From: Gammaproteobacteria bacterium
GTDB taxonomy: Bacteria; Pseudomonadota; Gammaproteobacteria; UBA1113
Assembly: GCA_021773305.1 (NCBI GenBank)
Contig: JAJFKH010000104.1
Coordinates: 1,172 to 65,171 of the forward strand
DNA: 64,000 bases
Direction of reading: 5' to 3'
Shown piece after piece: positions 30,001-33,000 of this stretch; the first letter of the stretch is position 1; each line of letters starts with the position of its first letter. The position numbers were made by a program.

Positions 30001-33000
30001 GGTTACCTCATTGAGAGAAAATGTATATTAAACGATTTGAAAATTAAATTTGAAGAATTAAGCAACAAATATAATGGCTTAAAGAAAAAGAAAAAGTTAC
30101 TGAAAAATAATTATGAAGCACAAATCGAACTTATAGTAAGAACCTGGGAGAGTAAAAGCAGCGTTTTAGAGTCTAAACTCGTTAATTTAGAAAACAGCCA
30201 TCAGCAGGAAATTGAAAAAATCAATCAAGAGCTTCTTACAGCTCAAGAAGCGCTTCAAGCTATCATAACAAAATATGAGGGTAGGCAAGAAGAGGGTAAC
30301 AACAGAAAGTCAAATACTAAACGTGGCTCTGTCACTAAGCAGAATAAGCATTACCAAACTTCACAAGTTACCATTATAAATAGCCCTAACACTACATTTC
30401 ATCAAAGTGGGATATTCAGGCATTGTGAGATATTTCAGAACTGCGACATTAGCATTCCAAACGTTCAGGAGGTTACATTTTACGGAAACAGGACAGTCAT
30501 CAGAAATGGCTGCATACCTACCCGACCTACCATCAGTGCAGAAAAAGTTGTAACTACAGAAAAAACCCATGAAAAAACAGCTGAACCCCCAATTGAAACT
30601 CTTAGTCAAAACCCGCAACCTAAAGCTTCTCAACTCATCATGAAATATTCTCCGCTTTATAAAAAAAGTGAAAGCATACTAGAAACTAATTGGAGTTATG
30701 AAGAGCTAAAATCATTATTTAGCAATAATCGCGTATGCATAGATCTTTGGAATGAGAGAGTCGCATCATTGCGTCAATTTGAGCAAGGCGACTCATTATC
30801 TAAGCTGGAACTAGAAAATTTAAAAAAATATTTTAGTTTATGGCTTAAAGAATTTGACAAAATGTATGCATTATCGACTGCTTTACGCAAGAAAACCCAA
30901 GACTTTATCAAACTTGCGTTGCAGATACTGGTCGAGGGTAAGCCCTTGGAGGAAAAAATTTCCGAAATTCGTTCCACCCCATCAATGGGTTAATTTAAGC
31001 ACCTACAAAAGGAAATAACAACAATTAATCAGCAAATGCAAATAAGAAATGCATCCATATTGCAGCTATCCAAAAAGCCATCGCCTAAAAATCAAGTAGA
31101 AATCCTTACGTTATTGCTAGAACTGAATCAAACAGTCTGTGAATTACAAATAAAACAAAGCTGTAATTAGAGTCGTTTTACGATGATTGAAGAACGATTG
31201 GCTGACTTAGAGATGTTACAGCAGCATCAACTCTATCAACAAAAATTTGAAAAATCATTAGAGGGCAACGATCCTTCCATTAAGTTTTTTTACTTTCGTT
31301 TTTCTCAATACTTTGGTCGTTTACTCCGAGCCGCAGAATTATCCTCAGCAGGATTAAAATTAAACCCCAGCTTAACAGAAATAGGATTACAAAATTTAAT
31401 TCCTCTCGGTGACTTAGTTATCAATATGGCGTCTACGGGTATTACTTTGGGTACCGGTATTCCCATGCCCTCACTACCTTTGTTTAGTGTGCTAGGCACT
31501 GTCAGCAGCGCATTGCATCGCCGTTGGCGCGGTAACCTCTATAAAACGGCTGCTGAACATCTAGGGCAACCCACCGCGAATGAGCAGTTTGTGGTGTGCC
31601 TGAGCATGTATTTATGTCAAAGAACCATTCTTAAACTTAACCGAAGACGGTGTTGAATATGCCGCTCAAGGCATGAGTTTATTGTTGTTTCGGATGTTGC
31701 AATACGGCTATGTTGATGATACTTCAGAGTTATCTGTTATCGAGCAGCTGTTATCCAAAATGCGTTTAGCTGTTCTCGATAGCAATACCAACGTGGGGCG
31801 GCTGTTAGATTTTGGCGGTAAAACCTTTGGCGGACGGTTTGAGTTACCCGAATTTTTTGCTAACACAAAGTTACCCCTGCGCAACAAACAGGATGGTAAA
31901 TCTCATTGGACATTACAGAGTATGATAACAAAAACAGGGTTGCGCATAACAGATGCCAGCGGCAATGATGATTATCATCACTATGAGATTTGCTGTTTGC
32001 AGCATCAAGGACATAGCAATGCGAAAACAACTCCTATTTCTAACATAACTCGTTATGGTTACCAAACAATAACATGGGGAATGCGCGAACTTATTTTAAA
32101 ACACACACAACGTCAACACTGGTGTATGATGCCTATCACCTTGGGATTCACACCACCACAGCCATTCTTTGAGACACCCAAAAACACATTCCACAAAAAA
32201 CGTAAGCCCGTACCACTTCAACCACAGTCTGTAGCATCGCCAACACAGACTCCTTCTCCCAATACACAACCCTATAACAGTGCGGCTCATGACGGTATAT
32301 ATAGTCAATCGGCAGCACAGGCAATGAAGCCGCGTAGCCCATTTTCCTAAGATAAAGCAGCACAGTAGGGGTGGGTTGTTGGGTGCTCATGAATATCAGC
32401 TTTTTGCCCCGTCCAGTGGGCTTTTTATCTTTAAGTAGAGGCGATTTTTGCAGATCTATCTTAAGATTTTCCCCCTACCGCCCACGTGCTGCGGCTTGTC
32501 CGCAGCATCCAAGAATAAACGGTGATATTCGTGTCGATCTCTCAGGGCTTGTCCGCAGCATCCAAGAAAAAATGGTGATATTCGTGTCGATCTCTCAGGG
32601 CTTGTCCGCAGCATCCAAGAAAAAATGGGGGAATTCGTGTCGATCGCTCAGTATTTGGTCGCATTCCCGACTAAAACGCAAGCAATTGCAGAATAGTCCT
32701 GACTTTTCTGCAATTCGGTTCGTAATAGTCATAATGAACCGGGTGCAGGTTGTAAAAAATCTTCGTCAAGAGCGCATGGTAGGTTCCATCGCAATCAGAC
32801 AAGTTATTAACTACTTGTCTGAACTTTGGCTATGAATATACCCAACTATAACCGAGATGCCTTATGCAAAAAGAAGATCACCGGTTCGGAGCTTGCAATA
32901 ATATTACCGCTCCCATCAACAATTTGCGCAAACACACGATGCTCTCCTCGCAATATGCCTGTTAGTTGCACCATGGTTGCTTCTTGAGATTGGCCTTGCT

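Follow-up and report, generated by a model that had tools for sequence, protein, structure and literature searches.

Setting of the two repeat loci

The 64,000-nt stretch analysed here (the window; positions 1,172 to 65,171 of contig JAJFKH010000104.1, assembly GCA_021773305.1) comes from a gammaproteobacterium of the GTDB lineage UBA1113 and contains an intergenic repeat at two loci, at 32 kb (copy A) and at 46 kb (copy B). Copy A lies between two convergent genes, an orphan open reading frame (ORF; 31673-32350, plus strand) and a DUF4124 gene (32846-33415, minus strand) that is followed by glnA, and copy B lies between a rhodanese gene (minus strand) and gpmI (plus strand). The repeat is a real, ordinary, sharply bounded non-coding segment of about 175 bp, which is present in two copies in the window. 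The coordinates of the repeat, its parts and its surroundings are given in Table 1.

The best named relatives of GpmI are those of Aquicella (61% identity) and of metagenome-assembled genomes of Legionellales, and a relative with 64% identity has Dot/Icm genes beside gpmI. The orphan ORF next to copy A, the last of a run of such ORFs, matches only itself among 1.84 billion representative proteins. Taken together, these relationships indicate that the lineage is an uncultured, poorly sampled Legionellales-type bacterium.

Table 1. Positions of the repeat, its component parts and associated features in the window.
Feature	Position	Strand	Description
Low-GC island	26313..32350	+	GC 0.35-0.38 vs 0.42-0.44 around; DUF4143 ATPase and orphan ORFs; copy A at right edge
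Repeat copy A	32385..32651	+	'F' orientation; conserved core 32385-32492, then 53-bp x3 array
Best-conserved repeat end	32389..32434	+	44/46 identical to 46147-46102; weak hairpin CCCGTCCAGTGGG, then T-run
GC hairpin, copy A	32487..32507		TGCTGCGG-CTTGT-CCGCAGCA, -14.5 kcal/mol
53-bp unit 1 (inner)	32493..32545	+	overlaps hairpin loop and 3' arm
53-bp unit 2	32546..32598	+	51/53 identical to unit 1
53-bp unit 3 (outer)	32599..32651	+	49/53 identical to unit 2
Insertion block	45817..46342		526 bp, contains copy B; flanked by direct repeat CTCCCRGGAGCAGTGTAT
sRNA-like gene	45906-46023	+	other members L009:2504-2575, L010:2498-2560, L011-L020
-10-like TATACT (45906-45911) and nested hairpin	45906..45959	+	outside repeat; R1 match 45916-45959, 61.5 bits
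Repeat copy B	45978..46153	-	'F' orientation on minus strand; single terminal unit, ~63 nt
Candidate terminator of sRNA-like gene	45981..46023	+	in copy B terminal unit; 8-bp stem, 11-nt loop, then CTTTTATAAGTTTTTC
GC hairpin, copy B	46029..46049		TGCCGCGA-ACAAG-TCGCGGCA, -14.4 kcal/mol; two pairs altered on both sides vs copy A

Extent and conservation of the repeat

An earlier note, made from the sequence alone, had described an element common to two inverted, intergenic loci at about 85% identity over about 125 bp, and both the homology and the intergenic position are borne out. The copies form an inverted-repeat pair of 134 nt (I2; 32385-32518 and 46018-46151) that is 86% complementary without gaps, and a gapped blastn alignment reaches 174 nt at 81% identity (E ~3e-39); a second pair (I7; 32567-32601 and 45978-46012) corresponds to one terminal unit. 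Each of the three conserved blocks that had been singled out is found exactly twice in the window, with the terminal unit present three times at one locus and once at the other, against a chance expectation of 0.00-0.09. With the limits refined to those in Table 1, the copies lie in opposite orientation and their homology breaks off sharply at either end: when the outer and inner flanks are aligned locally, the scores fall short of the shuffled-control mean. Two candidates, a second, degenerate unit at 46 kb and a shared flank past the element, were rejected, as the alignments are no better than shuffles.

The repeat occupies exactly two loci within 64 kb, and no third copy was found in the window by blastn with 7-nt words or by nhmmer with --max. 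A 20-mer from the core has one match (in Oscillospiraceae) among 185,579 species-representative genomes and four among JGI metagenome contigs, all confined to the 20-mer itself and at chance level, and none among viral contigs (IMG/VR). Blastn of the repeat itself against plasmids, phages and E. coli genomes returned no matches, and it has no counterpart at either corresponding locus of the sister genome (Logan SRR29547193; 74% identical to the window in GpmI and 88% in GlnA).

Conservation between the copies is graded: the first 46 nt, at the end that faces the converging ORF, contain 2 differences, the following 83 nt contain 16, and divergence is greatest in the terminal unit. In both copies T-tracts occur at element positions 13, 34, 57 and 79 (32389-32470 and 46147-46066), at a spacing of approximately 21-23 bp, and A-tracts at 10-bp spacing are present in the 46-kb unit; these conserved tracts may mark intrinsically bent DNA.

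Several lines of evidence indicate that the repeat is non-coding. The 18 substitutions in 129 ungapped nucleotides are distributed 5/8/5 over the codon positions, the codon changes between the copies are 4 synonymous versus 11 non-synonymous, and no Shine-Dalgarno sequence precedes the ATG common to both copies. The 53-bp period is not a multiple of three and the reading frame consequently shifts at every unit.

The 53-bp array

The presence of the terminal unit three times in 53-bp register at 32 kb and once at 46 kb, as first noticed, is confirmed by Tandem Repeats Finder, which reports period 53 and 3.0 copies at 32493-32651 with 94% matches, no indels and a score of 276. The three units are pairwise identical at 51/53, 49/53 and 47/53 positions; their number comes from a short-read metagenome assembly, in which 53-bp units that are 94-96% identical could be mis-counted. 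The 46-kb unit is longer (approximately 63 nt) because it contains three small insertions, 10 nt in all. Since units 1-3 are 89-96% alike, far closer to one another than to the 46-kb unit, the amplification postdates the separation of the two loci.

The sequences at the ends of the unit point to how the array could have arisen. The unit junction at 32 kb reads CTCTCAGG|GCTTGTCC (also written CTCTCAGG|GCTTGTCCGCAGC), the hairpin loop region of copy A reads GCGGCTTGTCCGCAGC, and the outer end of the single-unit copy B reads CTCTCAGGGCCT. A microhomology of 5-7 nt, GGC(T/C)T, is found in the hairpin loop (GCGGCTTGTCC) and at the outer end of the element (CTCAGGGCCT at 46 kb), and therefore links the two points that slippage or unequal exchange over 53 bp would join. 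The triplication at 32 kb would thus have arisen through slipped-strand mispairing or unequal recombination on this microhomology.

Hairpins and folding

The short GC hairpin reported at both loci is present, with compensated pairs. It is 21 nt long, and all 8 pairs are kept though 4 stem positions differ between the copies (2 compensated pairs); it occurs once per locus and at these two loci only within the window, and is not followed by a U-tract. In Monte Carlo simulation at the observed substitution density, the probability of this outcome is ~0.017 jointly and ~0.046 conditional on at least four stem hits, which is suggestive, not decisive, of selection on pairing. The hairpin plausibly acts as a stabiliser of RNA 3' ends rather than as a true terminator.

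A second hairpin, in the best-conserved end of the core, is followed by a T-run and is terminator-like by consensus scan in both copies. The element is not a globally structured RNA, since whole-element folding (z = +0.39 and -1.05) is no better than shuffles. Nor does it belong to a known RNA family: neither copy has an Rfam 15 match at the gathering threshold, E-value scans of both loci yield noise, and the only Rfam match in the window is a tRNA at 18656-18728.

The ends of the element, CTGAGAGATC and GCTMATGAAT, are not complementary and thus do not form terminal inverted repeats. Its sole inverted repeat pairs CATGAATATCAGC with GGTGATATTCGTG (82-83% over 17-18 nt), one arm of which is internal to the unit.

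The insertion at 46 kb

Copy B lies within a 526-bp block that is an insertion. The spacer between the rhodanese gene and gpmI is approximately 100 bp in the sister genome versus approximately 600 bp in the window, and when 45817-46342 is removed together with one copy of the flanking repeat, the remaining sequence is 83% identical to the sister spacer over 116 columns. As to the recombination hot spot considered in the earlier note, synteny with the sister genome extends across the site, and no inversion has been fixed between the two repeat copies. A second relative, L021 (64% in GpmI), has a different synteny upstream of gpmI and is uninformative.

The block has inverted ends, one reading TGTCAAGG...AAATGTCCCC and the other the reverse complement of TGTTGAACC...AATGTCCCC, each with two motif copies; the block runs from TGTCAAGG... 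to ...TTCAACA (TGT...ACA), with two AAATGTCCCC motifs per end in inverted orientation. These terminal inverted repeats are significant, as none of 1000 shuffles reaches the end-to-end score, and elsewhere in the window the end motif AAATGTCCCC has chance-level matches only. The flanking direct repeat of 17-18 bp is found at 45799-45816 and 46343-46360 only and includes the palindrome CTCCCGGGAG; it is unusually long for a transposon target duplication, so that it may represent an att-type core.

Two further features lie inside the block. A 27-aa ORF (MGDNLIMSKKERRLKALFEQVKLSDHI; 46161-46244, minus strand) with a GGAGGT Shine-Dalgarno sequence converges on the repeat and had no tblastn match to plasmids. 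A promoter-like site (TTGAGT-17 nt-CATAAT; 46201-46229, plus strand) is directed toward gpmI, and just beyond the limit of the block there is a conserved TACAAT box; the promoter of gpmI may thus have been displaced or supplemented when the block was inserted.

A plasmid-type sRNA-like gene beside copy B

Immediately next to copy B, window positions 45913-45951 are a 92% match to intergenic DNA of Legionella conjugative plasmids, and a core of approximately 30 nt is also found on plasmids of Phaeobacter, Paracoccus, Cereibacter, Leisingera, Sulfitobacter, Roseivivax, Methylorubrum and Rhodovastum. These sequences belong to an unannotated family resembling small RNA (sRNA) genes that is carried by at least 18 conjugative or mobilizable plasmids of Legionella and alphaproteobacteria (Rhodobacterales, Methylorubrum and Rhodovastum), with one chromosomal copy in the window. 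Members share a -10-like box, a nested 5' hairpin (xACGGU-ACA-GGCG-GGGA-CGCC-GAUG-ACCGU; 82-94% identity over the matched 31-39 nt across those plasmids), a variable linker and, in 9/12 members, a GC-rich, locus-specific terminator.

In an alignment of 11 family sequences, pairing within the structure reaches 95.5%, three pairs carry changes in both partners and none of 500 shuffles reaches the covariation score; slid registers of the alignment collapse. The family has no match in Rfam. A covariance model of it defined in this analysis, R1, finds one copy in the window (Table 1), and neither the repeat itself nor the 32-kb locus belongs to the family. A 5' module at the 32-kb locus was accordingly rejected, the best other R1 match (14.8 bits) lying elsewhere, inside an ORF.

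The only plausible terminator for this gene, at the position where 9/12 family members have theirs, is a candidate within the terminal unit of copy B, CTGAGAGA-11 nt-TTTTCTCAG (-8.3 kcal/mol) followed by CTTTTATAAGTTTTTC. Its stem is destroyed in all three 32-kb units. The suggestion in the earlier note that the elements could be small RNA genes is thus not borne out for the repeat itself, given its folding and the lack of an Rfam match, and stands in an indirect form, since copy B starts where the sRNA-like gene needs a terminator.

RocR and RocRp are sRNAs of Legionella and of its conjugative elements that silence transformation (PMC6744872). The rocRp gene was located on plasmid pLPL by its NruI site, TATAAT box and UUUCU tail (per PMC6744872, PMC9674577) at approximately 38.3-38.4 kb (L022 ~5330-5410, minus strand). 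The module in the window resembles RocRp in being a short promoter-hairpin-terminator unit in intergenic DNA of Legionella conjugative plasmids, but has no sequence or structure in common with it and is also found on alphaproteobacterial plasmids. Identity with RocRp was rejected: the best R1 score across pLPL 33-42 kb is 7.2 bits, a local alignment of the window module with pLPL 37.8-37.9 kb, which lies outside rocRp, was at noise level, and comparison with rocRp by eye shows no similarity.

The low-GC island at 32 kb

Copy A lies at the edge of a low-GC island of approximately 6 kb, situated between deaD and the conserved glnA-typA backbone, that encodes a DUF4143/AAA_14 ATPase and four consecutive orphan ORFs. 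It was previously said to abut the end of a 'degraded giant gene', and it indeed starts 34 nt past the last ORF of the orphan-ORF run. The 14-mer CTCTCAGGGCCTGT at 27144 was considered as an att repeat of the island and rejected, being at chance level given the number of pairs compared. No promoter-like sites were found at the 32-kb locus.

Between the array and the DUF4124 stop, at 32669-32730, there is a palindrome whose arms are 30 nt long and after which the minus strand reads GCGTTTTAG; it is most simply a minus-strand terminator of the glnA-DUF4124 operon rather than part of an sRNA module. A search with the DUF4124 protein found no close relative. Sister contigs identified through GlnA stop 73 bp past DUF4124 and diverge from the window, which makes the empty-site comparison at 32 kb uninformative; a 57-aa 'cluster mate' of GlnA (P0122) was rejected as an unrelated clustering artefact. 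The ends of the sister contigs carry an unrelated motif and not the repeat. At the identical break point, both contigs (L023:11929-11941 and L024:9982-9994) end in a 13-mer of the same class as the arms (TATACCCGTAGTG) of a near-perfect palindrome at window positions 13561-13625, which may be a separate lineage-specific REP-like motif (REP, repetitive extragenic palindrome).

Origin and possible role of the repeat

The reading that we favour, with about as much doubt as confidence, is that the repeat is not an autonomous element but a 3'-end module that mobile or acquired DNA carried as a passenger or left as a relic, its 53-bp unit having been amplified by slippage. Consistent with this, the repeat is non-coding, has sharp limits with unrelated flanks and only two copies in 64 kb, and both copies sit in DNA additional to the conserved gene backbone (the 526-bp block and the edge of the 6-kb low-GC island) with the same polarity relative to the converging upstream ORF. 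Further support comes from the presence in the block of an sRNA-like gene whose family is otherwise known from conjugative or mobilizable plasmids, from the GC hairpin that is stable in both copies, from the stem and U-tract of the 46-kb unit at the family terminator position, and from the junction microhomology.

Read along the 46-kb plus strand, the element has three parts. The first is the terminal unit, which ends in a U/T-tract and whose hairpin at 46 kb could terminate the adjacent sRNA-like gene. Next comes the 8-bp GC hairpin, stable but lacking a U-tract, of the REP-like kind that can protect an RNA 3' end, and then the T-tract-rich core, which has a weak hairpin and T-run on its other strand, toward the gene converging from the opposite side. 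At both loci the element occupies the gap between converging transcription units: at 32 kb the DUF4124-glnA operon and the orphan ORF, whose end is at 32350, and at 46 kb the sRNA-like gene and the 27-aa ORF. A plausible present role is therefore that of a 3'-end or insulator module.

Several observations weigh against this account. The repeat itself carries no mobility hallmarks: its sole inverted repeat is imperfect and not terminal, and neither copy is bordered by a direct repeat of the target-site-duplication kind, the flanks being unrelated. The low-GC island has no convincing att-like boundary repeat, and both the end motifs of the block and the sRNA module are missing from the 32-kb locus, which leaves a common mobile ancestor of the two loci as something we infer. 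Given how distant the sister genome is, what it lacks says little about timing. With regard to function, both terminator-like hairpins are weak: a simple scan misses the 46-kb unit as a terminator because of its 11-nt loop, and the core hairpin (-3.8/-7.3 kcal/mol) is no better than shuffles. RNA structure does not account for the best-conserved 46 nt, and palindrome-templated repair, instead of selection, could have produced the compensatory hairpin changes.

A possible but doubtful alternative is that the window holds two of many members of a dispersed multi-copy family akin to miniature inverted-repeat transposable elements (MITEs), REPs and bacterial interspersed mosaic elements (BIMEs) or enterobacterial repetitive intergenic consensus sequences (ERIC), with a unit number that varies by locus or strain as in a true variable-number tandem repeat (VNTR). 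At a density of two copies per 64 kb, a genome of approximately 2 Mb would hold dozens, the element is small, intergenic, sharply bounded and non-coding with a stable hairpin, and both sister contigs break 73 bp past DUF4124, as assemblies do at repeats or polymorphic sites. However, those contig ends bear an unrelated motif, no third copy appears in the window even at low stringency, terminal inverted repeats and target duplications are lacking, and the core 20-mer has chance matches only in the species-representative genomes and JGI metagenomes and none in IMG/VR; the copies are moreover just 81-86% identical, so there was no recent burst. That the element is a small-RNA gene, or the 3' part of one, present as two paralogs, is unlikely. 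In its favour, the covariation-supported 5' hairpin with its -10-like box lies 19 nt upstream of copy B (the match ends at 45959 and the repeat starts at 45978), the terminal unit is the only plausible terminator of that gene, and the central hairpin is kept by paired substitutions; yet the 32-kb locus has no promoter-like site and no 5' module, R1 scoring 14.8 bits at best elsewhere and inside an ORF, the terminator stem is lost in all three units there, and the folding scores (+0.39/-1.05) and Rfam searches are negative for the element as a whole.

More unlikely again is a site acting at the DNA level, either architectural or protein-binding (bent DNA or nucleation of a nucleoid protein), with the 53-bp units as phased putative sites. 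The T-tracts, about two helical turns apart in both copies, the 10-bp-spaced A-tracts of the 46-kb unit, a period of about five helical turns and the poor folding of the most conserved 46 nt would fit such a site, but no cognate protein or motif was identified, copy A has a convergent 3' end on each side, a setting with no promoter to regulate, and just the last of the four tracts is in the less conserved part, so tract conservation may mirror overall identity. An encoded small protein is extremely improbable: both copies open with ATGAATATCAGC and share an N-terminal peptide (MNISFLPRPVGFLSL...), the ORF staying open for 47 aa at 46 kb and 154 aa at 32 kb, but this ORF runs through the three units in three different frames, and the hairpin substitutions are non-synonymous yet preserve pairing. 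This candidate was rejected on the substitution pattern, the absent Shine-Dalgarno sequence and the 53-bp period.

A further and rather improbable reading is that the 526-bp block is a miniature mobile cassette that brought a plasmid-type regulatory sRNA gene into the chromosome, that the repeat is the conserved 3' terminator/hairpin module of such cassettes, and that copy A is the stump of a second cassette at the edge of an acquired island, with its terminator unit amplified threefold. If so, the repeat would mark a previously undescribed route of plasmid sRNA domestication in intracellular Legionellales.

Comparison with known repeats and significance

The array resembles the VNTR loci used for multiple-locus VNTR analysis (MLVA) of Legionella pneumophila and Coxiella burnetii in being a non-coding intergenic array of near-identical units of tens of bp in a Legionellales-type genome, and with 53 bp x 3.0 units identical at 47-51/53 positions it has the at least two near-identical head-to-tail units of a VNTR array. 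It differs in that the unit also exists singly and diverged at a second locus, inside a larger repeat; the VNTR-defining trait, copy-number polymorphism between strains, lies beyond the one genome covered here. With the REP/BIME and ERIC sequences of enterobacteria the repeat shares a short stable GC palindrome (the 21-nt hairpin with its 8-bp stem, in both copies, falls within the 20-40 nt of a short imperfect palindrome), a location in the 3' intergenic space of convergent genes and a larger mosaic repeat; it differs in having just two copies seen, no sequence similarity to them and a whole element that is not palindromic (z = +0.39, -1.05). No transposase of the REP-associated tyrosine transposase (RAYT) type was identified, in the absence of a systematic RAYT search.

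Like MITEs, such as the Correia elements of Neisseria and the QMITEs of Coxiella, the repeat is small, non-coding, sharply bounded and tied to inserted DNA, and the enclosing 526-bp block has terminal inverted repeats and a flanking direct repeat. In contrast to MITEs, the repeat itself has neither terminal inverted repeats nor target-site duplications, the flanking repeat of the block far exceeds usual transposon target duplications, and the block ends occur nowhere else in the window.

Repeats of this type, lineage-specific, intergenic and tandemly amplified at one end, are common, and the repeat alone matters little; its use as a typing marker would depend on further genomes of the lineage becoming available and on variation in unit number. 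In practice it can serve to flag acquired DNA, since each copy marks an insertion into an otherwise conserved backbone. The neighbouring sRNA-like gene, covarying and not in Rfam, is the more noteworthy lead, and if it is a trans-acting plasmid sRNA, its presence in a Dot/Icm-lineage chromosome would be worth following up.

Other repeats in the window

Four other tandem repeats, at 2684-2787, 18159-18215, 25870-25933 and 40141-40212, have periods of 36, 18, 27 and 18 bp, respectively, all divisible by three, and at least two lie inside ORFs (the C-terminal region of deaD and the C-terminus of MlaA); they are alternative VNTR-like candidates. A divergent pair of orphan paralogs of 244 and 265 aa (55452-57151), which have no Pfam domain and lie beside a 1005-aa orphan ORF, forms inverted repeats with 468-nt arms at 76% identity.

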